Shown: one piece after another, positions 1 through 41,260 of the stretch
How positions within the stretch are numbered: position 1 is the stretch's first letter
Layout: each line of letters opens with the position of its first letter
NCBI GenBank assembly: GCA_965227295.1
Contig: OZ245742.1
Span: 4,416,001-4,480,000, forward strand
Direction of reading: 5' to 3'
DNA length: 64,000 nt
From: Leptonemataceae bacterium
GTDB taxonomy: Bacteria > Spirochaetota > Leptospiria > Leptospirales > Leptonemataceae
Notes under the pieces: generated by a model
Told to the model about the DNA's origin: nothing
Database searches by the model: none
What the model saw: the letters and a program-made list of their open reading frames with translations, nothing else
Position numbers and translations under genes: made by a program

Positions 1-1
1 C

Positions 2-421
2 GAACAAATGGACGGCCTGCTCATCGATCTCGAAGAAAAACAGAAGCAGATCCACGCCATGGGCAAACGCATCGAGGAGATGCGTGAGAGCGGCGACGAC
101 GTTCGCCAGGAACTCGAATCCCTGGTGGGCGAGGCGGACGAGAAGATGGACCGGCTCACCGCGTTCTACCAGACCGTCGACGCCCTGCTGGACGAGGCTG
201 CGCGATTTGACTCGACCGGCGCGGAGTTCTCTGAAAATCTGGCCCCGATTCAGAAAGGACGCGGCAAAGCTGCGAACGGTAAGGCACCGGTACCGGAGCA
301 CAAACGCAACGGCATCCTGAGTCTGTATTTGAATCACAAGTGGGACGCGGATCTCATCGCCGAACGCATGAAGATTGATCCGTCCGTCGTGCGGGCCGTG
401 ATTTCCAGTCACAGCAAGTAA
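2..421 (+). CDS. Hypothetical coiled-coil protein, probably 5'-truncated by the window edge
   Basis: Frame is open from the window start; heptad-rich sequence with a possible C-terminal HTH-like segment. Confidence 0.65.
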   Translation, partial: EQMDGLLIDLEEKQKQIHAMGKRIEEMRESGDDVRQELESLVGEADEKMDRLTAFYQTVDALLDEAARFDSTGAEFSENLAPIQKGRGKAANGKAPVPEHKRNGILSLYLNHKWDADLIAERMKIDPSVVRAVISSHSK

Positions 422-28837: not shown

Positions 28838-31438
28838 TTATCCCGCTTCCACTTCTTCTTTCAACGCCAGTTGCGCCACGGCGAGCAGTGCGATGGGCAC
28901 GCTGTAGGAACTGCACGAGACATACTGCAAACCGGCGGCCCGGCAGAACTCGATGTTCTCCGGATCGGCGCCGTGCTCGCCGCACAGACCGAGCTTAATG
29001 TCCGGCCGCGTGAGCCGACCGCGGATGCTGCTGATCTTGATGAGTTCTTTCACCGGCACGCCGAGGACCTGGAAGGGATTCGCCGCCAGGAGGTCGTACT
29101 CCGTGTAGGCCGGGAAGAACGAGTTCGAATCGTCGCGGCTGAGGCCGTTGGTGGTCTGGGTAAGATCGTTCGTGCCGTAACTGAAAAACTCGGCGTAGCG
29201 CGCCAGCTCGTCCGAAAGCAGGGCCGCCGCAGGCAGCTCCACCATGGTGCCGATCTTGTACTCGACCGAGGTGCCTTCTTTTTCGAAGACGTCCGCCGCG
29301 ATCTCCGCCGCGCCGCGAACATGCTTGCCCTCGATCTTCTTGCCGTTGCGGATCATGTTCAACTCGGACGGATTCATGATCAGCGGGATCATGATTTCGG
29401 GCACGACGTTGTCGTTGCCTTCTTTCTTGAGCTTGCACGCCGCTTCCAGGATGGCGCGGATCTGCATTTCGTAGATTTCCGGATACGTGATGGCCACGCG
29501 GCAACCGCGGTGACCGAGCATGGGATTGAACTCGTGCAGGCGATCCACCTGGGCGTCGATCTCGGTGGTGTCCGGCGTAATGCCTTTGCCTTTCAGATAC
29601 TCAAGATAGTCGTTCATGACCGACTCGGTGCGCGGCAGGAACTCGTGGAGCGGCGCGTCCAGGAGACGGATGGTCACCGGATGCGGGGCCATGGTGCTGA
29701 AAAGATCGTAGAAGTCCTGGCGCTGCAGCGGCTGCAGATCGTCCAGACACTTGATGCGCGTCTCGGTGTCTTTCGCCAGGATCATTTCGCGGAAACGATT
29801 GATGCGGTCGTCGGCAAAAAACATGTGCTCCGTGCGGCACAGGCCGATGCCGTAAGCGCCCATGGTCTTCGCCACTTTGGCGTCGCGCCCCAGGTCGGCG
29901 TTGGCACGGACCACGAAGTCCGGCTTAATGAACTTCTTGATGACCTCGATGAAGTCGGTCAGCCCGTTCGTGTGGATGTCGGGGTTGATCAGCTCCGCTT
30001 TACCGAGAAAGATCGTCGGCTCCTTGTAGACCGGCACATCGAGAGTTACGTAGTCGCCTTCTTTCACGGTGACGCCGTTGAGCTCGAACTGTTTGTCGCC
30101 GTACTTGATGTCCGTGTTCACCACGCTCACCTTACCCATCGAACGCGCGACCACCGGAGCGTGGGAACTGTATCCGCCTTCCACGGAGATGACGCCCTGC
30201 CCGACCTCGATGGCCTTCACGTCTTCGGCATACGAAGCCTCGACACAGAGGACGAGCCGCGTGTCCTCGCCTTTCTGCAACGCGTCCCGATGGGCTTCCA
30301 TGAGCGCGTCCGCCGAAAAGTAGACGCGCCCCACGGCAGCACCGGGAGAACCCGCAAGACCGCCGCTCACGGACGGAATGGACGTGACCGATTCCGGATC
30401 CACGATGGGGTGCAGCAACGTTGCCAGTTGTCCCGGCGGGATCTGCTCAACGAGCCATTTGTCTTCGACGACGTTTTCTTTCATGAGATCCAGGAGCGTA
30501 CGGATGTGCGCCTGGGTGGACTTCTTGTCCTCGGCGGTCTGGTTGATGATCCAGATGTTGCCCTGCTCGACGATGAACTTCACCTCGCGCAGTTCGCGGA
30601 ACTTGTGCTCCAGCTTGCGGCCGATTTCGTTCATCTCTTTCAGGTAGGTCTCGTCCATGCCGTGAATGTCTTCGCCCTTGTTTTCCAGGGTGTAGGCCTT
30701 GCGCACGAAACTGCCCTGTAACTTAGCGTCGCCGGTGATGATGTTCCGCGTGAAGAACATGCCCACCATATCGTTCTCGCTGAGGTTGCCAAAGACCATG
30801 CCCTGCACCATGACGGAGAGGTTGTCGTCTTCGTCCAGTTCCGGGTCGTAATAACGTTTCGCCGCATGTTTGATGACGGCTTCCAGTTGCGCCATGGGAT
30901 CGTCCGGGATCCTGTCCGGGCCGATGAGCGCCTGCATTTCGTCGGCGCACTTCTGCATGTCCTCGGCAGTGCGTTCGTACTTCTTTTCGATCTCGTCGAA
31001 CTTCCCGGGCTCGATGTCGAAGAGTTTGATGCCGGCGGTACGCAAGAGGTAGCAGTACTCGAACCAGGCCGAGGCCTCCCCGATCATCTTCGCGAAGCCG
31101 GGAATGGTGACCGGAGACAGTCCGACGTTGAACACGGTCGGATAGATGGGCAGCACCAGGTTCGCGCTGCACACGACCTTCACGAGCAGCGGATTTTCCG
31201 AATCGCCGTATTTGCGGCCGATGCCTTTTTCGATGTGCGCCAGTCCCGGCGGAGCGATGCTCTTAACATCGAGGTTTTCGATCTTAGAAACAGTGCGGGA
31301 TTCGAATATGAAGCCGGGCACCACCGGCATCTTCAGTTCGGCAAGTTCCAGTGCTCGCTGCCCCCGTTTTCCGGATCGCTCCCAGACGTCCTGGTCCGAG
31401 GTGCAACCTTCCTGGCTGAACATATGAATTTGTGACAT
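28838..31438 (-). CDS. PPDK-family PEP-utilising protein with a degenerate nucleotide-binding domain
   Basis: His domain GGYSSHAPVVAR; PEP domain GLCRTEHMF, IRLLD, GTMVELP, FSYGTNDLTQ, LCGEHG; ATP-grasp motifs altered. Confidence 0.88.
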   Translation of the reverse strand: MSQIHMFSQEGCTSDQDVWERSGKRGQRALELAELKMPVVPGFIFESRTVSKIENLDVKSIAPPGLAHIEKGIGRKYGDSENPLLVKVVCSANLVLPIYPTVFNVGLSPVTIPGFAKMIGEASAWFEYCYLLRTAGIKLFDIEPGKFDEIEKKYERTAEDMQKCADEMQALIGPDRIPDDPMAQLEAVIKHAAKRYYDPELDEDDNLSVMVQGMVFGNLSENDMVGMFFTRNIITGDAKLQGSFVRKAYTLENKGEDIHGMDETYLKEMNEIGRKLEHKFRELREVKFIVEQGNIWIINQTAEDKKSTQAHIRTLLDLMKENVVEDKWLVEQIPPGQLATLLHPIVDPESVTSIPSVSGGLAGSPGAAVGRVYFSADALMEAHRDALQKGEDTRLVLCVEASYAEDVKAIEVGQGVISVEGGYSSHAPVVARSMGKVSVVNTDIKYGDKQFELNGVTVKEGDYVTLDVPVYKEPTIFLGKAELINPDIHTNGLTDFIEVIKKFIKPDFVVRANADLGRDAKVAKTMGAYGIGLCRTEHMFFADDRINRFREMILAKDTETRIKCLDDLQPLQRQDFYDLFSTMAPHPVTIRLLDAPLHEFLPRTESVMNDYLEYLKGKGITPDTTEIDAQVDRLHEFNPMLGHRGCRVAITYPEIYEMQIRAILEAACKLKKEGNDNVVPEIMIPLIMNPSELNMIRNGKKIEGKHVRGAAEIAADVFEKEGTSVEYKIGTMVELPAAALLSDELARYAEFFSYGTNDLTQTTNGLSRDDSNSFFPAYTEYDLLAANPFQVLGVPVKELIKISSIRGRLTRPDIKLGLCGEHGADPENIEFCRAAGLQYVSCSSYSVPIALLAVAQLALKEEVEAG

Positions 31439-31575: not shown

Positions 31576-32655
31576 TTAGGCGTTCTTCTGGTCCGTCGGT
31601 GCCACGCCGGGTTCGTAAATGGAGACGTTGTTGCGCCCGCGGTGCTTGCAGATGTAGAGCGCGTCGTCGGCGAGTTTGACGAAGTCGTCCACCTCGTTGA
31701 TGTACTGCGAGTGCAGTGGATAACTGGACACGCCTATGGATATCGTAATGTGGGCGACCTGATCACCAATGGGGATGGGGCGAGACTCGATGTTCTTACG
31801 AATGAGTTCGCCGACTTCCATGCCGCGGTCCGGGCCGGAATCGGGGAGCAACACCACGAACTCTTCGCCTCCGTAGCGGCCGGCAATGTCGTCGCTCCCG
31901 AGCTTGTGTACGGTCTCTTTGATGACGTGAGCGAGTTCTACCAGGGCCTGGTCGCCGCCCTGGTGGCCGTAGGTATTGTTTACGTTGCGAAAGAGATCAA
32001 TATCCGACATAAGCAGCGAGACTGGCTGCCCCGAGCTTCTCGCGCGCCGGAATTCTTCTTCCAGACGGGCCTTGAAGTAATCTTTAATATAGAGACCGGT
32101 GGTACCGTCGACGGTGGCCATGGTATGCAGGCGCGCGTTCTCGATGGCGATCGCCGCCTGGTTCGCCATGGTCTGAAATATTTGCAGGTCGTCCTCGTTG
32201 AAGCGGCGGCCGTCGTTTTTGTTCAGGACCTGGACCGTGCCCAGGCTGCGACGTTTTGCCAGGAGCGGCACGCACATCATCGTTTTAGTAACGAACCCGC
32301 TCTCGGAGTCGGCGCGGCTCGAAAAACGCGGATCGGACGCGGCGTCGGTCACGAGGACCGGCTCGCCCTGCTTCGCCACCCACCCGGCAATGCCCTCGCC
32401 CAGCTTCAGACGGATGTTGCGGATGGCCTCGCTCTTCTCGCCTTTGATGACGTGGAAGTAAAGTTCCTCGGCTTCTTCGTCGACCAGCATGAGACTGGAA
32501 GCCTCGGCGTCGCAGAGTTCCTTCGCCTTTTCCATGAGCGAGTCGAGCACGACGTTAAGGTCGAGGCTCGACGACAGCAGCGCGTTGATTTCGAGAACCT
32601 TGTACAGGCGCTCGTTTTCGTGACGCAGGCGCTCAATGTCGGTCGAATCCGGCAT
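31576..32655 (-). CDS. GAF-GGDEF diguanylate cyclase
   Basis: GAF domain (GEGIAGWVA, DPRF, CVPL); DIDLF..VN..YGH..GD; RYGGEEF. Confidence 0.92.
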   Translation of the reverse strand: MPDSTDIERLRHENERLYKVLEINALLSSSLDLNVVLDSLMEKAKELCDAEASSLMLVDEEAEELYFHVIKGEKSEAIRNIRLKLGEGIAGWVAKQGEPVLVTDAASDPRFSSRADSESGFVTKTMMCVPLLAKRRSLGTVQVLNKNDGRRFNEDDLQIFQTMANQAAIAIENARLHTMATVDGTTGLYIKDYFKARLEEEFRRARSSGQPVSLLMSDIDLFRNVNNTYGHQGGDQALVELAHVIKETVHKLGSDDIAGRYGGEEFVVLLPDSGPDRGMEVGELIRKNIESRPIPIGDQVAHITISIGVSSYPLHSQYINEVDDFVKLADDALYICKHRGRNNVSIYEPGVAPTDQKNA

Positions 32656-32817
32656 GGCTTCAGGTATCCGCACCCGGCGCTCGGGGGCAACTGCTTTTCC
32701 GAACCATACTCCTGACGCAAACGGAAGAACCTGCACGCCCTGCACCGTAAGCAAAAAAATCGGATAAAACGGAAAACTCCTTTAAATTCCCGCTCCACAA
32801 CTCCGTAATTTAAGAAT

Positions 32818-33298: not shown

Positions 33299-35959
33299 CT
33301 ACAAACTCCGCTTTTCGATTTCGCGGTCTTTGAGTTCGAGAATCCTTTTCATGGCCGGGGTGACGGCCAGGCGGGCGAGGTTATCACGGAGTTCTTTCGC
33401 CTTCGTCAGGGATTCCGTGCTACCGGACTCCTCGTACTCCAGGAGATTCGTGGAGATTTGCCGGTCCAGGATGTTGATGCGCGCGAAGTCCTTGCGATAG
33501 TGCTGCCGGGCGATTTCCCAGATGTACTCTTTGGGCTCGACGCGAGCGCGACGTCCGTCGGGTAACTCCAGCTCATCGCCCGGGAAGACCCGATCCGGAT
33601 CACGCTTGCTGGCCGCCGTGCGCGTACCGAGTCGTGCAAAACCGTTGCGCCGCGCGAGAATGTTCGCATACGTGAGGACTTCTTCGTCCGCGGCCTCGAT
33701 GTCGTCCTCGCCGGGAACTCGTTGTTCTTCCTGAAAGTTACCCGGCCCGGCCAGTTCCACGGCCCGACGCTCGGCCGCGCTGTCTCCGCGAAGCGACAGC
33801 TCGTTCGTGAAGTCCGAGCTGGCCGATGACGTGGAGATCCAGAGCACGCCGACAACCAGGAGAACCGCAACGACACCGGCGACCGCCAGGGCCGCGGTCC
33901 GGCCGATGCCGGAGTCCGCCAGACGATCCATGATGCCGCCCCCGCCGCGATTGGCCGCCACGACGCGACCGGGATTGTCCCCCGGTAAAAACGACGGCCG
34001 CCCGGCCTTCGCCTTACGAAAGCCTTCGCCGCCGGATTTCGGTCGCGGTTCCCAGCTGCGGCGTTTGGACCAGTGATTGCCGGCGCTACTGCGATCTTCT
34101 TCTTCTTCGCGAGTGTTTACGATACCTATATCGTTGAGGAAACCCTGGAAACGTTTGCGATCTTCCAGGATACGCAGGCGCTCTTCGTAGATGCGCTCCA
34201 GAAATTCGATGCAGTTCCGGAAGCCGGGCGGATCCCCGGCCTTGTCGATGCCCTTTTCCCAGGTGCGGAGTTGCTTCGCGTACGCTTTGGGGTTCGCTTC
34301 CAGATCGGCGTAGGACGGCGGCATGCGAAGTTCCACCGGTTCGTGGTGGGCCTGGCCGACGAATTGCAGCGTCGTCCGCGGGGTAAACAGAATGTGAAAC
34401 TGAGCGTCCTGGGTCCTGAGTGCCAGCCATTCGCTGTAGCGAATGCTGCGCGGATGATAGCGCTTCTGCAGTTTTTCCAGCAGGCTGCGGTGATGTTCGG
34501 TGTATGCCTGGCGATAGACCGGCAGGTGCCGCACGTATTCAAAGAGCCGGCTGAGATTGTAGAGTTCGCGGATGTTTTCTTTCGGCAACGGACGTTCGAT
34601 AAAATCGTTCAGGGCGCGGCTTAAATTCCCTTCCGTAAGATCTAAGCCGAGGTGTAACATTAGAAAATCCCGCACGGTATCGGCCAGGGGCGTCTCCGCG
34701 AAGATGTTCATGACCGTCTCGGCCAGGGCCGCCGGTTCTTCGGCTTCGTGGAAGCGATACTCCGAACTGCGGACCAGGGGCGTGGCCCGCTCGCTCAGAC
34801 GAGCGTTTTGAAAACGTTTGTCGTCGAGATCGCCCTGCATCTGCAGGCAAAGTCGTCCCTGGGCGCCTTCCAGGTCCTGCTTCGAATGGACCACCTGAAA
34901 CTCCAGGTCGTGGGGCGGACGCAGAAAGTCGAAGCTGCGGTTCTGTTTGCCGCCGCCCAGGGGAAACAGGATCTGCACCATGCGATCGGCCTGGGGACCC
35001 ATGCGATACGTAAACACGCCGTGGGAGCCGGTCTTCGATACAAAGTAGCTGATCTGTTTTGCCAGGGGCAATGCGCTGCCGTCGCCGAACGTAAAGAGCT
35101 TTGCGGCGTTGTAGATTTTTTTGAGAACAGGAACGCGCTCTTCATACGCCGCGGCGATGTAGATGCCGGCGTTGCGTTTCTGATGGTTCATGCGACGCAG
35201 GAACTCGCCCAGCCCCGCGGAGAACGGCGTGTACGATACGGCCATCTCCACGCGTTCGTGATCGACTTCCTGTTCGAACAGCGCGTAGTGCGGGTCGATG
35301 CACGGATTCAGAAAAAGGCCGCGGCCGTCGAAGTTCCAGTAGATGCACGGACGGGTCGGCGTCGGCGAGTACTCCGGGCCGAAGTAGATGAAACCTTTGC
35401 CGTCCTCGCACTTCTTGTGCCGACGGCGCATGGCCCGGGCCATGAGATCGTACTCTTTGTCGATGTCGATGCGGCCGCGCATAGCCGCCTGATGATCGTA
35501 AACCTTCGAAGTGCCGACGTTTACGACGGCATTGCCGGTTTCAAAGAACGTCGTAGTGACGCGGTTCTTTTCGTGGGCCAGGCGTACGGGTTTGTACGGC
35601 ACCGCTTCCACCGGACGGTTGCCCTCCTCCAGTTCCCGCATGCCCGTGAAAGCGTAGATCTGCTGAACGCGATCCTTGCTGCCGACGTAGCGAATGCTTT
35701 CCTCGCCCTCGTCGATCGTCGCCTGGAGCCAGGCCGTTTCGAGGCCGATGTTGATGGGATCGTTTTCTACAAGCAGAACGTTTTCGATATGCCGGAGCAC
35801 GCCGCCGGGAACGGACTTGCCCGCACCGACGCGCATGAACGGCCGCATGTCCTCACTGTGGAGGCCGGTGTAGATCACGCTCGTATCGCGGTCGATCTGA
35901 AAAACGCGGTCACTGCCGCGCAGTTCTGCGATTACCTGTTGCTTTTTATTCGCCGCCAT
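33299..35959 (-). CDS. Large membrane-anchored hypothetical protein with C-terminal LysM-like motifs
   Basis: Single TM segment (AALAVAGVVAVLLVVGVLWI); DPDRVFPGDELELP and VEPKEYIWEIARQHY resemble LysM halves. Confidence 0.75.
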   Translation of the reverse strand: MAANKKQQVIAELRGSDRVFQIDRDTSVIYTGLHSEDMRPFMRVGAGKSVPGGVLRHIENVLLVENDPINIGLETAWLQATIDEGEESIRYVGSKDRVQQIYAFTGMRELEEGNRPVEAVPYKPVRLAHEKNRVTTTFFETGNAVVNVGTSKVYDHQAAMRGRIDIDKEYDLMARAMRRRHKKCEDGKGFIYFGPEYSPTPTRPCIYWNFDGRGLFLNPCIDPHYALFEQEVDHERVEMAVSYTPFSAGLGEFLRRMNHQKRNAGIYIAAAYEERVPVLKKIYNAAKLFTFGDGSALPLAKQISYFVSKTGSHGVFTYRMGPQADRMVQILFPLGGGKQNRSFDFLRPPHDLEFQVVHSKQDLEGAQGRLCLQMQGDLDDKRFQNARLSERATPLVRSSEYRFHEAEEPAALAETVMNIFAETPLADTVRDFLMLHLGLDLTEGNLSRALNDFIERPLPKENIRELYNLSRLFEYVRHLPVYRQAYTEHHRSLLEKLQKRYHPRSIRYSEWLALRTQDAQFHILFTPRTTLQFVGQAHHEPVELRMPPSYADLEANPKAYAKQLRTWEKGIDKAGDPPGFRNCIEFLERIYEERLRILEDRKRFQGFLNDIGIVNTREEEEDRSSAGNHWSKRRSWEPRPKSGGEGFRKAKAGRPSFLPGDNPGRVVAANRGGGGIMDRLADSGIGRTAALAVAGVVAVLLVVGVLWISTSSASSDFTNELSLRGDSAAERRAVELAGPGNFQEEQRVPGEDDIEAADEEVLTYANILARRNGFARLGTRTAASKRDPDRVFPGDELELPDGRRARVEPKEYIWEIARQHYRKDFARINILDRQISTNLLEYEESGSTESLTKAKELRDNLARLAVTPAMKRILELKDREIEKRSL

Positions 35960-37208
35960 CGTTGTACTCGAAGATGTAATTGCCTAACCGGAACGAATCA
36001 CCGCGGGAAATGAGCCCGTCTTCTTTTTGTTTGATGTACTTGAAGTGGGCCTCGTCCCTGCCCGCGGGCTTCAGAATCGACTCACCCTTCACTTTCTTCG
36101 CCTTGAGGTCCACGTTCTTCGGGAGTCCCATCTGACGAATTTTCAAATCCGCACCCAGCTTGCTGCCGATGGACATCTTGCTCTTGTCCAGCTTGTCCAA
36201 ATCGAAGGAAGACTTCACCGGCTGGCCGACGTCGGCTTCATAGTAAGTGAAAGCGCCGGCCACCTTGTGACGATTCATAAACCAGCGGATGAGTATGATC
36301 AGGACACCGAGGATGAACAAGACCAACAGGACGTTCCGAATGATCGGAGCCCAGGCCCCGTAGCGCGTCTTCCACTGGACCTCGTCGACATCCTCGCTGA
36401 CCTCGGTGAGGCCGATTTCGTCGGCGGCCGCGGCTGACTCGTCTTGCGCTTCGCCGTCGTCGGCCGTGGCAGCGGCAGCGGAATCGTCCGCGGTCTCAGC
36501 TTCAGTCGCGGCAGCGTCGCCGCTCTCTGAATCGCTGGCCGGGGCCGCTTGTTTCGGTTCCGCCGATTTCTTTTTGGCCGGCTCCACGGTCTTCACTTCC
36601 GGCGAGAGTTCCTCGAGTTTCGCTTCGAGGGCCGGGTCCTTGAGTTTACCCAGGCTCACGTAGTAGATGTATGCGTTTTGCACCGGTCGGTCCCGGGTTT
36701 CGGACGGGTCTTTCAGGTCTTCGATGTTAAGTTTTTGGTCCTTTAACTCAGCCGGCGGATCGTCGCGACCGTCGGACATGATTACCACAAAGACGTTGCG
36801 GTCCTGGCTTTCCAGGCGCTCCACTTCTTCGCGGACGGACCCGACCATGCCTTTCATGAACGTATGCCGGCCCTTCGCGGCCAGGGTCTCCACGGCGCTT
36901 ACGACCCGGGCTCGATCCTCGTCGCCGTTGATTTTGTAGGAGCCGACCCGGTAGGTCTCCGTATCGAAGTTCATGAGCGTGATGGTGTCGCCGTCGTCCA
37001 CGGAACGCAGGAAGGCATCCATGCTCTGCTTGACCTTGTCGATTTTGCTCGCGTCGCCTCCCGGTCGATAGGCCATGGAACCGGAGGTATCGATCACGAG
37101 AACATAATCTTTACCGCCGCCGAAAAGGCCGCAGCCCGTCGCGAACGAGAGCGCCAGGGCGGCGCTCAGCAGGAGTCGCGAAAAATTCTTAAGTGCAATG
37201 ATTCTCAT
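35946..37208 (-). CDS. vWA-domain lipoprotein with a C-terminal TM helix and FHA-like tail
   Basis: Lipobox FATGC; MIDAS DTSGS..T..SDG; TM helix; IGSKLGADLKI..ISRGDSFRLGNY. Confidence 0.8.
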   Translation of the reverse strand: MRIIALKNFSRLLLSAALALSFATGCGLFGGGKDYVLVIDTSGSMAYRPGGDASKIDKVKQSMDAFLRSVDDGDTITLMNFDTETYRVGSYKINGDEDRARVVSAVETLAAKGRHTFMKGMVGSVREEVERLESQDRNVFVVIMSDGRDDPPAELKDQKLNIEDLKDPSETRDRPVQNAYIYYVSLGKLKDPALEAKLEELSPEVKTVEPAKKKSAEPKQAAPASDSESGDAAATEAETADDSAAAATADDGEAQDESAAAADEIGLTEVSEDVDEVQWKTRYGAWAPIIRNVLLVLFILGVLIILIRWFMNRHKVAGAFTYYEADVGQPVKSSFDLDKLDKSKMSIGSKLGADLKIRQMGLPKNVDLKAKKVKGESILKPAGRDEAHFKYIKQKEDGLISRGDSFRLGNYIFEYNDGGE

Positions 37209-37313
37209 AGGAATGCTCGGTACCGTTTTCGAATTCAGGCCAAACTCACGAGACCACAAAAGAACGATGCGACGTAATGCAGCGAAGGAGACCAGGGCCG
37301 ACGACCGACCTGG

Positions 37314-38033
37314 TCAATACTCGTTGTATTCCTTGTTGTTCTTAATGTAGTCGCGTAAGTTTAAATTCAAAGCGCCGTCGCGGTCAAGATATTCCATGAG
37401 TAAAATGTAGAACCACATCATGGTATCCGGGCCGGTTTCCACGACCTTATACCCGCCGGCGATTTCCCAGTCCTTGATGATCAGGCCCTGGCCGAGAACG
37501 CAAATCAAGTCCGTCTCCATGTTGACCGGGATTTCTTTTTCCTGAGAGATTTCGATCAGGTTCTGCTTGTGAAAGAGGAGCGAATGCTCCGAATCGTAGG
37601 CGAAGAGCAGCGAGTACATCGGAACGACATCCAGTTCGCTGACTTCGCGCTCACCGGAGTGCAGGACCTTAAGCGCCCGGGTGAGGCTCGCGTGGGTGGC
37701 CAGGTTCGCCGCGGTCAGTCCGGCTTCGATCGTAATGAACGCGTTCAACGCGTCCGCGAGGACATAACCGCCTGTAAGGTCCAGGAACTTCGCGCACCAC
37801 TTGCGATAGATCAACACGTCGCAGTCGCGATTCAGCAGGTGCTTTTTGTTTCGCACCTTGCCCGTGGCCAGCGAGATTTCCGGCGGCAGGTGATCCTTCA
37901 GGAAGGTATAGAACTCCTGAAAAAGGTTCAGGTCTTTCTTTTTCTCGGGGAGTTTGACTCCCCGTTTCCCCAGCTTTTTAGCCAGGGCCTTTTCCAGGTC
38001 GGTGCTTTGGTTGGCGAAGTACTCCGAGAACAT
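37314..38033 (-). CDS. Hypothetical protein, possibly DUF6602-like
   Basis: FLKDHLP..GKV..DCDVLIY pattern. Confidence 0.65.
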   Translation of the reverse strand: MFSEYFANQSTDLEKALAKKLGKRGVKLPEKKKDLNLFQEFYTFLKDHLPPEISLATGKVRNKKHLLNRDCDVLIYRKWCAKFLDLTGGYVLADALNAFITIEAGLTAANLATHASLTRALKVLHSGEREVSELDVVPMYSLLFAYDSEHSLLFHKQNLIEISQEKEIPVNMETDLICVLGQGLIIKDWEIAGGYKVVETGPDTMMWFYILLMEYLDRDGALNLNLRDYIKNNKEYNEY

Positions 38034-38068: not shown

Positions 38069-39049
38069 TCAGAAAAGATTCAGGACTTTGTTTACGTCGT
38101 GCTTCAGAAAGCTCTCGAAGCGCGAGGAAGCGCCCTCGTGCAGGTATTTCTGTAGCTTGCTGACGCCCTTGATCTCCACGCCGGCCACCTGGAAGAAGAT
38201 GAGACCGCCGTGTTTCACCTTACCCCACTTAAACAGGGTGTTCAGGTCCTGAATGAGTTCGCCCTCGTGGTAGACGATGACCTGTGAAGTATTGTAGCGG
38301 GTCTCGTAGGACTCAATGATGTTCTTCCAGGCCTCCACGTTGCCGTTGTGGAAGAGTTCGTTGGTCACCTGCACCGAGTACTTCGGCGTCATGCGCTTCT
38401 TGCCGGCCGGCGCGGCCTGCTGGGCCGGACGCGCCGCGGGCTGCGGAGCGGCGGGCTTCGGGGCCGGCGCGGGAGCCGACTGCTGGCGCGGCGGCGGAGG
38501 GGGCGGCGGAGGCGGAGCCGCACGTTCGAACTCCGGATCGCTTTCCGGCGTCTTGCCGTCGAGCATGGCGAAGAAAGCCTCAAGGGCCTTTTCGGCCGTT
38601 TCCCGTTTGTTGTTCTTCGCCCGGGCATAGACGATCATGAGTTCGTTGACCTTCACGCCGTGCAGCGAGTCCCAGTGTTCCTGCTTCGCGGGATTTACCA
38701 GGTTCACGCCGGTGGTCGGGTGATAGTAAACCACGACCAGGTCGATACCGTTCCACTTCTTAAATTGCTCGGCGATCTTGCCGAGCGCCGCGTCGTCGAC
38801 GCTGGCCTTCAGGTTGGTGGAACGATACGGAAGATCGAGTTTGTTGATGAGGATGACGCTGAGGATCGGCGGGATCTGTTCGCGCTGGATGACGTTGTTC
38901 TCCAGCAGGTCGTTCAGCAGATCGGCGAGGTTTCCGCCTTTGCTTGCGGCTTCCACCAGGTTTGTAACGTTCACAATGTGACGCAACGTCTGGTTGAACG
39001 CCTCGCGGGTTCCGAGATTCGAAAGTTCTTTTCCGGTGCTGACTGCCAT
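38069..39049 (-). CDS. CfpA-adjacent protein: N-terminal domain, Pro/Ala linker, C-terminal HPr-like domain (inferred)
   Basis: RBS GAGGAG; residues 220-308 align by eye with HPr, including His234. Confidence 0.8.
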   Translation of the reverse strand: MAVSTGKELSNLGTREAFNQTLRHIVNVTNLVEAASKGGNLADLLNDLLENNVIQREQIPPILSVILINKLDLPYRSTNLKASVDDAALGKIAEQFKKWNGIDLVVVYYHPTTGVNLVNPAKQEHWDSLHGVKVNELMIVYARAKNNKRETAEKALEAFFAMLDGKTPESDPEFERAAPPPPPPPPPRQQSAPAPAPKPAAPQPAARPAQQAAPAGKKRMTPKYSVQVTNELFHNGNVEAWKNIIESYETRYNTSQVIVYHEGELIQDLNTLFKWGKVKHGGLIFFQVAGVEIKGVSKLQKYLHEGASSRFESFLKHDVNKVLNLF

Positions 39050-39122: not shown

Positions 39123-39153
39123 AAAAAACCCGCGATCCGAAGACCGCGGGTTT
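39123..39153 (-). terminator. Intrinsic terminator after cfpA
   Basis: Minus strand AAACCCGCGGTC-TTCG-GATCGCGGGTTTTTT, with a cUUCGg loop. Confidence 0.8.
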
Positions 39154-39187: not shown

Positions 39188-41260
39188 TCAGAGTTCTTTC
39201 AAGCCCATCTCTTTGAGTTTGTCCTCGTAAGATTTGGGCGTTACATCGGCCGAGCCTGCGACTCCGCCGGCTCCCGCCGGGGCGTCGCCGCCTCCTCCGC
39301 CACCGGACGGGGGTGCGGGCGGCGGTGGCGGAGGTGCTCCACCACCGTCGTCGTCCGGTCCCTGGTTTTGGTTCGCGGAATCGGCCGTGCTATACGCCAG
39401 AGACGCTGCGGTCTCTTTCATCTCGTCGCTGCCGAAGTTCTGATCGATATCCGCACGCATCGTAGAACGACGGCGCTTGAACGAAGCGAAGGCCGCGTCC
39501 GCGAAGCCCTGAGAGACGCCGTGGAGGAATTCGTTCAGAACGTTCGCCATGGCTTTCATCATGTATTGCTTGCGCTTGGTCGTGGTGAGGTCCACGTCCA
39601 GGAGCAGGCCGGGCTGCAGTTGATGCGGGTTGATTTCGTAGATGAAGGAGTTGAACTCTTTTTCGAGGAGATTCAACCGCTCATCGAGAACGACGCGTTC
39701 TACCGGGTTCTGGTAGCCGAACATTTCCTGGAGCATGCTCTGGAGGTAGTTCAGTTTATCGCCGACGTTCTTGATTTCGACCTGATACGTGCGATTGTTC
39801 TTCTCGACGAAGGTGCTCGCCGGATCGCGGAACTGGAGTTCGTTCCAGTGCAGTTCGTCCGGATCCTGATTGATGGCCTTGCGATCCTTCACCCACTGGC
39901 GCGGCATGAGCTTTTCGGTTAGGTCCTCGAAGTCGCCCATCTTCTTGCTGAGGCCGAGCCACTTGGACTTCCGCTTTTCGTACAGCGTATGCACGACGTC
40001 CCAGACAGCGTCCACTTCCCGGAGGAATGCGGCGATGCGGTTGTCGTAGATGCGCTTGAGTTCGCGGATCTGGTTTTGATCGAAGTAAACCAGGCGGATG
40101 GCGTAGCGCTCGTCCGGAAGCTGCGTCTCGTCCAGATCTTCGTACTCACGGATGATACACTCGCGGGCGTTCTTGTTGTTATCGCAAAACTGATAACCGA
40201 GGCGCGAGGTATCAAGGATCGAGGTCAGCGTGTTCACGGCGGTGTTGAAGCCGCGGTTCCGAATGTTCTCGTTGTCGATGATCTTCTTGATCTGCTCCCG
40301 CATGTTCAGCGGGTCGTAGTCTTCTTGATCGATCTCTGCGCGCAGGCCGTCGATTTTATCGAGGAACTTCTTGCCGAGGATGGTGTAACGACGGGAGTTC
40401 GGGTCCGAGACGTTGTCGTCGGTGAACTTCTCGACGAGCTTGATCTTCTCGAACATGATCTCGGAGTCGCTGAGCTCGGCACGACCGGAGTCCACCATCT
40501 CTTCTTTGAGCTTTTCGATCTCGCGATCGATGAGTTCGGAAATGTGCTGGGAGAGCTGCTCTTTCAGCAGGTGCTCCACGGTTACCTGATAGTGGAAGAT
40601 CCGGGAAATGAGCTCGGAGTCCAGGATGTTGATGGAGAGTTTGATGTCCGAAACGGTCTTCGGTTTGAAGGCGTTGTCCTTGAACGCGCACTTTACGATG
40701 GAGTAAGCATTCTCACCGCGAACGAAGGCGCCGATGTCCGTTTTTTGACGGAGGATGGCGTTCGTTTCGTTCTCCAGGTCGTTCATACCCCGCTGGATAT
40801 GGCCCTGAAGGTGACCGTACATGTTCACGACGGACTTCTCTAATTCACCCGTGTTGAACTTGTCGGAGCCGCCGATTTTATCCAGCAGTTCGACGATTTC
40901 TTTCGGAGTGTACCGGGCGAGGCTTTTGACTTCTTCTTTGTCGACGAAGTCGCGGACCTTTTTGACCATCTCATCTTCCACCGTTATCGCGTAACGGTTG
41001 AACATGTTCACGTATGCCTGGTTGACGTAGTTGTAGAGCTTGTCTTCGATGCTCGCCATTACGTCGACGTCTTTGACGACTTCCGGCGGCAACTTCGTCT
41101 GCGTGTACTCGGAAATGTAGCGCGCGGTCTCGTCGATGATGCGCTTCGCTTCCGCGGGTTTGTCTCGACCCTCCCACACCAATGAGGTACGCGATGCGAC
41201 CGCACTGGGAAGAACAGGATCGATTTTATTCGGGCTTTTCGGGAATTGCCCCACTGCCAT
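39188..41260 (-). CDS. cfpA: Cytoplasmic filament protein CfpA family
   Basis: 690 aa; PSAVASR, NTGELEKSVVNMYGHLQGHIQRG, ENIRNRGFNTAVN, QPGLLLDVDLT, AAFASFKRRRST match my recollection of the spirochaete CfpA family. Confidence 0.82.
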   Translation of the reverse strand: MAVGQFPKSPNKIDPVLPSAVASRTSLVWEGRDKPAEAKRIIDETARYISEYTQTKLPPEVVKDVDVMASIEDKLYNYVNQAYVNMFNRYAITVEDEMVKKVRDFVDKEEVKSLARYTPKEIVELLDKIGGSDKFNTGELEKSVVNMYGHLQGHIQRGMNDLENETNAILRQKTDIGAFVRGENAYSIVKCAFKDNAFKPKTVSDIKLSINILDSELISRIFHYQVTVEHLLKEQLSQHISELIDREIEKLKEEMVDSGRAELSDSEIMFEKIKLVEKFTDDNVSDPNSRRYTILGKKFLDKIDGLRAEIDQEDYDPLNMREQIKKIIDNENIRNRGFNTAVNTLTSILDTSRLGYQFCDNNKNARECIIREYEDLDETQLPDERYAIRLVYFDQNQIRELKRIYDNRIAAFLREVDAVWDVVHTLYEKRKSKWLGLSKKMGDFEDLTEKLMPRQWVKDRKAINQDPDELHWNELQFRDPASTFVEKNNRTYQVEIKNVGDKLNYLQSMLQEMFGYQNPVERVVLDERLNLLEKEFNSFIYEINPHQLQPGLLLDVDLTTTKRKQYMMKAMANVLNEFLHGVSQGFADAAFASFKRRRSTMRADIDQNFGSDEMKETAASLAYSTADSANQNQGPDDDGGGAPPPPPPAPPSGGGGGGDAPAGAGGVAGSADVTPKSYEDKLKEMGLKEL

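Follow-up and report, generated by a model that had tools for sequence, protein, structure and literature searches.

The locus

All coordinates given here are positions in the whole 64,000-nt stretch of DNA that was analysed (the window), and the 326-aa open reading frame (ORF) at 38069..39049 on the minus strand, which had been reported in a preliminary description and is present in the ORF list, is called the target. The gene upstream of it is cfpA (NCBIfam NF040882), so the target does lie directly downstream of cfpA, as that description held. A terminator-like hairpin (39126..39153) is placed between the cfpA stop codon and the target start; seven such hairpins occur in the region against 6.2 expected, and therefore only the position and strength of this one are notable. 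On the other side of the target lie two conserved neighbours and a third that accompanies it in closer relatives (Table 1), the last an 886-aa protein without a match to any Pfam or NCBIfam family. In this window, a gene resembling pyruvate phosphate dikinase (PPDK) is found 6.7 kb from the target, beyond four other genes.

Within the target, a Pro/Ala-rich stretch does precede M220, covering approximately residues 177-219. The linker that contains it is variable in length and sequence in the family alignment A1, with 1 of 53 columns conserved at 90% or more. The stretch 38072-38392 (minus strand) translates to a 107-aa domain beginning MTPKYSVQV, and translation likewise confirms that His234 falls at position 15 of this domain. 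The last residue of the target, F326, is invariant in the family alignments A1 and A2.

Table 1. Genes, predicted protein segments and other features of the window
Feature	Position	Strand	Basis
cfpA, cytoplasmic filament protein gene, 690 aa	39188..41260	-	NCBIfam NF040882, E 1.4e-263, 876 bits, cut-off 500
Terminator-like hairpin, 12-bp stem with 7 GC pairs, loop of 4, followed by T-run	39126..39153	-	Consensus scan
Target ORF, TP_0747 family member	38069..39049	-	ORF list; identical protein P0001 labelled PF27497.1
Residues 1-72, predicted N-terminal helical region, four helices (H7-13, H15-36, H41-50, H56-70)	38834..39049	-	DSSP, full-length model
Residues 73-166, predicted HPr-like fold 1, active-site position without His	38552..38833	-	DSSP elements and VIA-align
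Residues 167-219, flexible Pro/Ala-rich linker	38393..38551	-	pLDDT 51-71, no secondary structure
Residues 220-310, predicted HPr-like fold 2 (domain of the preliminary description), very highly conserved	38120..38392	-	Model, Foldseek and VIA-align
His234 codon, directly preceding helix 1 of fold 2	38348..38350	-	Helix 1 begins at domain residue 16
Residues 311-326, predicted extra C-terminal helix (H311-325), conserved L-x-L-F end	38072..38119	-	Full-length model
239-aa protein, weak DUF6602 match, conserved neighbour	37314..38033	-	Pfam E 3.3e-4, below cut-off; homologue in 49/80 related loci
437-aa VWA-domain protein with hydrophobic segment, conserved neighbour	35946..37259	-	Pfam VWA_2 E 8.7e-10; homologue in 49/80 loci
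886-aa protein, neighbour in closer relatives	33299..35959	-	Homologue in 33/80 loci
PPDK-like paralog, 866 aa; His426 codon 30161-30163	28838..31438	-	TIGR01828 full length; Pfam PEP-utilizers, PEP-utilizers_C

Sequence comparisons and family assignment

None of the tests applied detected significant similarity in sequence between the target and HPr. A Pfam scan returned no family at E≤0.1 (with a model set that lacked PF27497), and PF00381 matched none of 43 fold-2 sequences at E≤10, which bears out the expectation that standard profiles would miss the domain. A six-frame search of the whole genome with PF00381 found a canonical HPr elsewhere as its sole match, and comparison of the target domain with this HPr gave a BLASTP E of 4.5. 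Probabilities from hhalign against HPr were 0.1-8% overall and 2-8% against 26 spirochaete HPrs. By sequence profile (PF00381 / TIGR01003), the target is thus not a member of the HPr family.

It does belong to the TP_0747 family (Pfam PF27497, TP_0747_N). The label PF27497.1 is carried by the identical protein and by all 120 homologues among the matches listed, and in the three best Atlas clusters PF27497 TP_0747_N is found on 92-98% of members. Going by its name, the Pfam entry TP_0747_N spans the N-terminal part only. Several other matches were considered and rejected: one to the NusA N-terminal domain is not significant (A1 profile, E 0.41-0.47); phmmer matches to capsid and huntingtin proteins fall on the Pro-rich linker, a low-complexity sequence; and an NCBIfam PspA match, again to the linker, reaches 22 bits against a cut-off of 850.

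Predicted structures

The domain-only AlphaFold model of residues 220-326 has a pLDDT of 91.4 and shows the order b-a-b-b-a-b-a, the beta-alpha-beta-beta-alpha-beta-alpha sandwich of HPr that the preliminary description had set as a test, plus one additional C-terminal helix. In Foldseek, HPr and Crh chains make up almost all of the best rows for this fold 2, with probabilities of up to 1.0 and TM scores of 0.54-0.67 on the matched chain (e.g. 1opd, E 4.4e-3, probability 1.0; 1ka5, rmsd 2.6). In VIA-align, HPr takes the first four places among 48,161 chains (Z 7.9, 7.4, 7.1 and 6.8, the best being slightly below the caution line of 8 for this program), with 78 of 85 residues aligned colinearly (model 2..90 versus HPr 1..85). 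Chains other than HPr start at Z 5.7, with ferredoxin-like chains and the aIF2-alpha C-terminal domain at Z 5.0-5.7.

Residues 73-166 are predicted to form a second HPr-like fold, which the preliminary description missed and which is the better match of the two. Its elements (b75-79, a86-98, b102-110, b114-118, a123-127, b137-144 and a149-163; pLDDT mostly above 90) follow the same order, and a wide VIA-align search returns the HPr chain 9s8b_C at Z 9.7 (rmsd 1.9, 82 of 85 residues aligned, model 73..166 versus chain 1..84), further HPr chains being 7ff5_A (Z 9.1), 1pch_A (8.9) and 1kkl_H (8.3); the first fold other than HPr scores about Z 5. The predicted models thus indicate that the target carries two copies of the HPr fold. 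Compared with one another by hhalign, the two reach a probability below 1%, and there is therefore no sequence trace of an internal duplication.

The HPr-like interpretation first proposed for the C-terminal domain is accordingly supported by the predicted models. The alignment by eye on which it was based shows a likeness in sequence that does not rise above chance; it is because of the predicted fold that the observation exceeds chance.

Conservation of His234 and of other HPr positions

Residue counts were taken from family representatives chosen without bias, leaving out loci that had been picked by peptide patterns containing His234. The His234 column holds His in 94 of the 106 representatives that cover it, so the lack of conservation that would have refuted the HPr-like reading is not seen. 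The site lies immediately before helix 1 and, by the aligned ranges, within one residue of HPr His15. The low-confidence hhalign register places helix 1 five residues off that of HPr, so the equivalence with His15 is drawn only from the secondary-structure register and the alignment ranges. The His is also kept, inside the same conserved motif, in two genomes from another spirochaete family. The 12 replacements fall in nine stand-alone homologues of 110-147 aa and in three full-length two-domain proteins, which have Ser, Gln or Asn instead; all five loci of stand-alone homologues that were analysed have neither a PPDK-like nor a cfpA match. Residues G236, N237, E239, A240 and W241 (99-104 of 106) are more conserved than His234 itself.

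Other hallmarks of HPr differ. The equivalent of Arg17 is missing, as had been stated: the residue two after the His is Gly236, and Gly occupies this position in 99 of 106 representatives. T271 is indeed the residue that had been equated with Ser46, but the position is not conserved (Ser 44, Thr 29 and Ala 23 of 108), a mixture that does not describe a kept acceptor site; by the secondary-structure register, the short helix is capped at its N-terminus by D268. Fold 2 as a whole is strikingly uniform, 50 of its 91 columns in A1 being at least 90% conserved. The loop after its strand 3 is the conserved L-F-K-W-G-K-V-K-H-G, which includes the conserved basic and aromatic residues F273, K274, W275, K277 and K279. 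In fold 1, the columns at the active-site place are variable and no His is found there.

Association with cfpA and a PPDK-like gene

Among 121 Spirochaetota genomes, the target family is present in 48 and cfpA in 47; the two occur together in 47 genomes, the target alone in one and cfpA alone in none. Immediately upstream of the target, cfpA is found in 72 of 80 related loci. A PPDK-like gene that scores below the cut-off for PPDK (537-740 bits) is present in 47 of the 48 target genomes, among the matches listed, and in 43 of these 47, again among the matches listed, it is the next gene downstream of the target; cfpA is adjacent in 37 of 47. Adjacency of the PPDK-like gene persists in five genomes in which cfpA is not adjacent, and in the more distant loci this gene is immediately downstream in 55 of 56. 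Additionally, Table 5 of one article lists TDE0842 (cfpA), TDE0843 and TDE0844 of Treponema denticola as jointly repressed (PMC3914990).

The 866-aa paralog encoded in the window is colinear with TIGR01828 over positions 9-864 and scores 666 bits against a cut-off of 843; it is not a canonical PPDK, as it has neither a score above this cut-off nor an intact nucleotide domain. We compared 25 such paralogs with the 248 columns that are invariant in 20 canonical PPDKs. Of the 106 such columns in the PEP/pyruvate domain, the paralogs retain 83. The nucleotide domain also has 106, but here retention falls to 19, with 61 lost, and the nucleotide loop Q-G-E-D-V-V-A-G-x-R-T-P has been deleted. All 25 paralogs (25 of 25) have the phospho-His and the invariant Cys. 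Paralogs and canonical enzymes are cleanly split in a tree (support 1.0). Two published articles treat TP0746 as the glycolytic PPDK (PMC10013896, PMC8525777).

Proposed role of the target

We propose, with a probability of roughly 0.45, that the target serves as the HPr-like member of a conserved module of three genes, cfpA, the target and the PPDK-like paralog. From gene order and co-occurrence, neither of which demonstrates binding, we infer a partnership of the target with the module, which we hold to be probable. In this role the target would have two heads. One of them, fold 2, would bind the phospho-histidine domain of the PPDK-like enzyme through the surface by which HPr contacts all of its partners, namely the loop and N-terminus of helix 1, where His234 lies, together with the loop after strand 3; the remaining half of the target would tie this pair to the CfpA filament. 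To docking through an HPr-type face of fold 2 we give slightly better than even odds. The PPDK-like enzyme may still be charged from PEP, though without a nucleotide site, and the favoured chemistry would be the passage of a phosphoryl group from His426 to His234, like that from enzyme I to HPr. Phosphorylation of His234 is put forward more tentatively and may well prove wrong. Several of the results above weigh against the proposal: the missing sequence similarity to HPr, the VIA-align score of fold 2 slightly below 8 and the ferredoxin-like scores on it, the Gly at the Arg17 place, the replacement of His234 in 12 of 106 representatives, the lack of a conserved Ser46 equivalent, the five-residue offset of helix 1, the 6.7 kb between target and PPDK-like gene in this window and the published treatment of TP0746 as a PPDK; all structures, moreover, are predictions. 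In its most general form, which is more doubtful again, the proposal would be that CfpA-building spirochaetes, treponemes included, carry a second phosphorelay without a role in sugar uptake, leading from PEP through His426 of the PPDK-like protein to His234 of a CfpA-tied tandem-HPr protein.

A rather unlikely but serious alternative is that the target is a docking adaptor only, whose two degenerate HPr folds bind CfpA filaments, the PPDK-like protein or others without phosphorylation, His234 being kept for structure or binding. Comparable regulatory, non-transport uses of HPr exist, and several of the features described above would fit: Arg17 is missing and replaced by Gly, fold 1 is without any His, His234 can be replaced in three full-length members and is less conserved than adjoining residues, the near-invariance of fold 2 is as expected for a large binding surface, and no profile picks up a phosphocarrier signature. 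Left unexplained, however, are the retention in all 25 paralogs of the phospho-His, its surrounding motif and the Cys despite the loss of the nucleotide site, and the loss of the target His mainly in stand-alone homologues (five loci without a PPDK-like match). We regard as improbable that the target is a bridge or anchor of the CfpA ribbon, its HPr likeness being a functionally meaningless consequence of a shared small alpha/beta sandwich and its PPDK-like neighbour a matter of mere conserved gene order. The near-perfect co-occurrence with cfpA and the position of cfpA directly upstream argue for such a role, the strength of the terminator-like hairpin that follows cfpA is in keeping with an accessory protein made in smaller amounts, the conserved basic and aromatic loop of fold 2 would suit it, and a 2004 paper by Izard et al., cited in PMC3398590, reportedly speaks in its title of novel bridging and anchoring components. 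Adjacency counts, however, make the link to the PPDK-like gene tighter than that to cfpA, and both separate domains have HPr as the single best fold, clear of the next.

It is very improbable that the target is a branch of the classical phosphotransferase system (PTS), in which an ordinary enzyme I or HPr would phosphorylate fold 2 and so report the PTS state to the cytoskeleton. The genome does encode enzyme I (PF05524, in a 614-aa frame), HPr and HPr kinase, but the enzyme I N-domain (PF05524) occurs in 120 of 121 Spirochaetota genomes versus 48 of 121 for the target, so there is no phyletic link; searches of the target neighbourhood with Pfam and NCBIfam found no PTS gene, and Arg17 and the HPr signature are missing. 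Least probable of all, to the point of being negligible, is a C-terminal domain of the ubiquitin-like beta-grasp type rather than an HPr-like one. This was suggested by a weak phmmer match in the PDB to the ubiquitin-like domain of hPLIC-2 (1j8c, E 0.015) and by Pfam ubiquitin, which matches 5 of 43 domain sequences (best E 0.01). We rejected it on topology, the predicted order being b-a-b-b-a-b-a versus b-b-a-b-b, and these profile matches are weak; nor do the top 50 rows of the two structure searches contain a ubiquitin-like chain, the absence of a family from such lists not excluding that family.

Significance

CfpA filaments are a cytoskeleton specific to spirochaetes, and we know of no partner protein of CfpA that has a known function. 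The target is a concrete and testable candidate for such a partner, with two predicted HPr folds and a presence in 47 of 47 cfpA-bearing genomes sampled, and it travels with a PPDK look-alike that retains only the PEP-to-histidine half of the chemistry. This pairing hints at a link between metabolism and cytoskeleton that has not been described. Cells of T. denticola that have lost cfpA are reported to become filamentous, to have condensed chromosomes and to be no longer infectious (PMC3398590).

If phosphotransfer takes place, a new PEP-dependent signalling branch would be joined to the cytoskeleton and the treponemal ‘PPDK’ would have to be read differently. Were the proposed phosphorelay true, the cell's PEP/pyruvate status would be recorded on filaments that influence division and chromosome structure, and the gene annotated as glycolytic PPDK beside cfpA would not be a normal PPDK. 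If there is no phosphotransfer, the predicted models would instead point to reuse of the HPr fold for docking, in a family beyond the reach of profile searches.

Comparison with known systems

The family of the target (PF27497) also includes the Treponema pallidum protein TP_0747 and the T. denticola protein TDE0843, both annotated as hypothetical. The same position beside cfpA is reported for TDE0842-0844 in the relevant table (PMC3914990). The literature searched contains no function, fold or HPr likeness for the TP_0747 / TDE0843 family and, in the parts covered, no mention of PF27497 or TP0747/TP_0747, with TDE0843 appearing only as a table row; among the best 15 of 43 titles on an HPr-like fold or domain, none concerns spirochaete filaments.

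As in HPr (PtsH), the fold and order of elements are predicted to be the same for both target domains, which align colinearly over nearly the whole of HPr, and in fold 2 a conserved His directly precedes helix 1, at about the place of His15 in HPr. Unlike HPr, fold 2 has a helix 1 that is about five residues longer and an extra C-terminal helix, and the target consists of two copies fused in 326 aa with a helical N-terminus. Its gene sits by cfpA and the PPDK-like gene, not by PTS genes, and the canonical HPr and HPr kinase of the genome are encoded elsewhere, separate from it.

The module resembles the enzyme I-HPr pair in that the gene for a PEP-utilising enzyme whose phospho-His domain swivels stands next to the one for a small His-bearing domain predicted to have the HPr fold. 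The paralog has lost its nucleotide site while retaining the PEP/pyruvate domain, the His and the Cys, so the chemistry left to it would be similar to that of enzyme I. Unlike enzyme I, it is colinear with PPDK over its full length, and a conserved, remodelled N-terminal domain takes the place of the HPr-binding subdomain. The pair also differs in that no sugar permease is involved and transfer in the target system is only proposed.

NPr (PtsO) and Crh are recognisable members of PF00381 by sequence, unlike the target domains. The likeness to them lies in the use of an HPr fold for regulation rather than sugar uptake, which the target would share, and both NPr (5t17) and Crh (1zvv, 1k1c) are among its structural matches.

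Predicted folds of the target

The target, a 326-aa protein encoded directly after cfpA, has 2686 homologues at E≤1e-3 in a word-indexed search (8000 candidates scored). All 120 homologues listed of these 2686 carry the precomputed Pfam label PF27497.1, a family named TP_0747_N in the ESM Atlas; the few of the 120 that have a name are ‘hypothetical protein’ entries of spirochaete MAGs. A Pfam search of the target with a model set lacking PF27497 returned no family, and PF27497 and TP0747 are mentioned in no paper found by literature search. In an excerpt of one study, TDE0843 appears only as a row of a transcriptome table, repressed along with cfpA (TDE0842) and TDE0844 (PMC3914990).

Structure prediction supports well the view that the target is a tandem of two HPr-like folds (fold 1, residues 73–166; fold 2, residues 220–310), because HPr is the single best fold for both domains. 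The full-length model, predicted from an alignment of the target family (A1; 54 of the 120 listed homologues), had a pLDDT of 84. Foldseek matched it to many HPr chains (probability 0.96–1.0, in output giving no aligned ranges), and VIA-align against 48,161 chains placed HPr on residues 73–166 in the N-terminal half: Z was 9.7 for HPr 9s8b_C (rmsd 1.9, 82/85 residues aligned), 9.1 for 7ff5_A, 8.9 for 1pch_A, 8.3 for 1kkl_H, and 6.7 for NPr 5t17. This run yields one best alignment per HPr chain, which was fold 1 each time; within it, the C-terminal domain reached only Z 5–6.6, with ferredoxin-like and other sandwiches.

Residues 220–326, for which the preliminary description had proposed an HPr fold, were modelled alone from a fold-2 domain alignment (A2; forty-three sequences, ten of them distant stand-alone homologues), with a pLDDT of 91.4 and a pTM of 0.85. 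The predicted model bears the proposal out: HPr and Crh chains fill nearly all of Foldseek's top rows, with a non-HPr row first appearing at rank 30, and the best four chains by VIA-align are all HPr (Z 7.9, 7.4, 7.1, and 6.8; rmsd 2.0–2.9; 78–81 residues aligned, with model 2..90 matched to HPr 1..85), followed by the next fold at Z 5.7.

Sequence comparison with HPr

The sequence itself had been described correctly, as M220 is preceded by a Pro/Ala-rich stretch, His234 is codon 38348–38350, and the Arg17 equivalent is missing, with Gly as the second residue past His234. The host genome encodes a canonical HPr (85 aa, adjoining an HPr kinase gene) and also enzyme I. BLASTP of the target C-terminal domain against this HPr gave E 4.5, and hhalign of A1 against it gave a probability of 0.1%. 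A spirochaete HPr profile was built from twenty-six sequences, four of thirty loci being dropped because no clean frame with the His motif was found; against it, hhalign gave 2% using the C-domain columns of A1 and 8% using the more diverse A2, colinear across fifty-seven columns (P 0.004). PF00381 at E≤10 matches none of the forty-three A2 members, in line with the earlier expectation that standard profiles might miss the domain, and ubiquitin is matched weakly by five of them. The likeness to HPr read by eye is therefore not above chance by sequence. The Arg17-equivalent column holds Gly in 99/106 representatives, and the column earlier equated with Ser46 holds Ser in 44, Thr in 29, and Ala in 23 (n=108). 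Judged from these alignments, HPr-family membership fails on sequence, Arg17, and Ser46.

Conservation of His234

In the model of residues 220–326, His234 (residue 15) immediately precedes helix 1, which begins at residue 16. Since the aligned ranges differ by one residue at their N-terminal ends, His234 is predicted to fall at or next to the HPr His15 position, given the standard numbering and element boundaries of HPr. The 120 representatives came from an exhaustive HMMER search that used the domain as query; 118 of them were aligned and 106 cover the column; loci found by peptide patterns were excluded from the count because the selecting peptides contain His234. Conservation in homologues, the check suggested earlier, favours the residue, with His in 94/106. 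The twelve exceptions are mostly stand-alone proteins (nine, of 110–147 aa), the other three being full-length with Ser, Gln, or Asn. Nearby, G236, N237, E239, A240, and W241 are kept in 99–104 of the 106. Fold 1 lacks a His around the beginning of its helix 1, where its columns are variable, and fold 2 is far more conserved (columns ≥90% conserved: 50/91 versus 13/94 in fold 1).

Five metagenome loci (63–70% G+C) each carry a stand-alone fold-2 homologue, the type of protein in which His234 is mostly replaced, and none of the five has a PPDK-like or cfpA match. At three (L112, L114, L115) the gene adjoins, or is flanked by, purH-like and ubiE-like genes.

Features of the window and of related loci (L) with stand-alone homologues
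Feature	Coordinates	Strand	Basis or remark
cfpA, upstream of target	39188..41260	-	NCBIfam NF040882, 876 bits vs cut-off 500
Terminator-like hairpin + T-run, strong	39126-39153	-	between cfpA and target
Target ORF, 326 aa	38069..39049	-	ORF list
Conserved neighbours: 239-aa (weak DUF6602), VWA with hydrophobic segment, 886-aa without family	33299-38033	-	
GAF-GGDEF diguanylate cyclase gene	31576-32754	-	between 886-aa and PPDK-like genes
PPDK-like paralog	28838..31438	-	666 bits vs cut-off 843
Stand-alone 118-aa fold-2 homologues without His	L112:5022-5378, L114:1172-1528, L115:1052-1408		contigs 67-70% G+C

Gene neighbourhood and occurrence

The hairpin follows the cfpA stop codon by 35 nt and precedes the target ATG by 77 nt, which suggests that cfpA is transcribed far above the genes behind it. 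In CfpA itself, residues 1–26 form an N-terminal peptide that hardly varies (P10, P15, A20, V21, S23, and S26 invariant in thirty-seven sequences), and residues 612–690, beyond a Pro/Gly-rich spacer, a conserved C-terminal peptide ending G-L-K-E-L; both are candidate docking peptides.

Among eighty related loci (species genomes), cfpA lies directly upstream of the target on the same strand in seventy-two, and six of the eight misses are contig ends. Homologues of the 239-aa, VWA, and 886-aa proteins occur in forty-nine, forty-nine, and thirty-three of the eighty, respectively; closer relatives have all three genes downstream of the target, and more distant ones have the 239-aa and VWA genes upstream of cfpA. 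A gene for a protein of ~860 aa, full-length colinear with pyruvate, phosphate dikinase (PPDK; 638–703 bits against an NCBIfam cut-off of 843), immediately follows the target in 55/56 more distant loci (L026–L081) and starts 5–6 kb downstream in six closer loci; in the window, the 239-aa, VWA, 886-aa, and GAF-GGDEF genes separate the two. One locus whose record is labelled as a non-spirochaete lineage, SAR324 cluster bacterium (L069), has a divergent cfpA (38% identity) and the usual order of cfpA, His-bearing target, and PPDK-like gene.

Across 121 Spirochaetota genomes (G numbers), the target is present in forty-eight and cfpA in forty-seven: both in forty-seven, the target alone in one (G048), cfpA alone in none, and neither in seventy-three. 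Canonical PPDK is widespread (1250–1465 bits). A sub-cut-off class (537–740 bits) occurs in at least forty-seven genomes among the matches listed, all forty-seven with the target; G105 (80% complete) has the target and no paralog among the matches listed. Read from coordinates, 43/47 genomes have the paralog as the next gene downstream of the target (not adjacent in G000, G076, G086, and G103), and cfpA adjoins the target in thirty-seven of forty-seven, not in eight, with two ambiguous. In G010, G011, G039, G073, and G115 the target and PPDK-like genes are adjacent with cfpA elsewhere, and the target and PPDK-like gene are therefore a tighter pair than the target and cfpA.

The PPDK-like paralog

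Twenty canonical spirochaete PPDKs, with 248 invariant columns, were compared with twenty-five paralogs. The paralogs keep 83/106 canonical-invariant columns in the PEP/pyruvate domain, 15/36 in the central domain, and 19/106 in the nucleotide domain, where sixty-one are lost and the Q-G-E-D-V-V-A-G-x-R-T-P loop is deleted. The phospho-His (His426 in the window) and the invariant, catalytic Cys are kept in 25/25; two residues before the phospho-His, the canonical Thr is Ser in nineteen, Ala in five, and Thr in one. A FastTree tree splits the two classes cleanly (support 1.0; 37% identity between them). In G102 and G015, of another spirochaete family (f16), a target with His adjoins a paralog that has the His motif but lacks G-E-D-V-V. 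From these patterns, PEP is expected to remain able to charge the paralog's His, and the nucleotide site is gone.

The paralog is the sole full-length PPDK-type gene of the host genome, in which canonical PPDK was not found; if it is not a working PPDK, the host's PEP/pyruvate step needs another enzyme. TP0746 is treated as the glycolytic PPDK in excerpts of two studies (PMC10013896, PMC8525777).

Functional interpretation

The target consistently accompanies cfpA and the PPDK paralog, and its functional reading rests on comparative genomics. That it is a pure adaptor, or alternatively a pure filament bridge, are both live rivals. The simplest mechanism using all facts would be docking of the enzyme I/HPr type with possible phosphotransfer: the remainder of the target would tie the target/paralog pair to the filament, and its fold 2 would dock the PPDK-like paralog, possibly followed by phosphotransfer to His234, as enzyme I docks with HPr.
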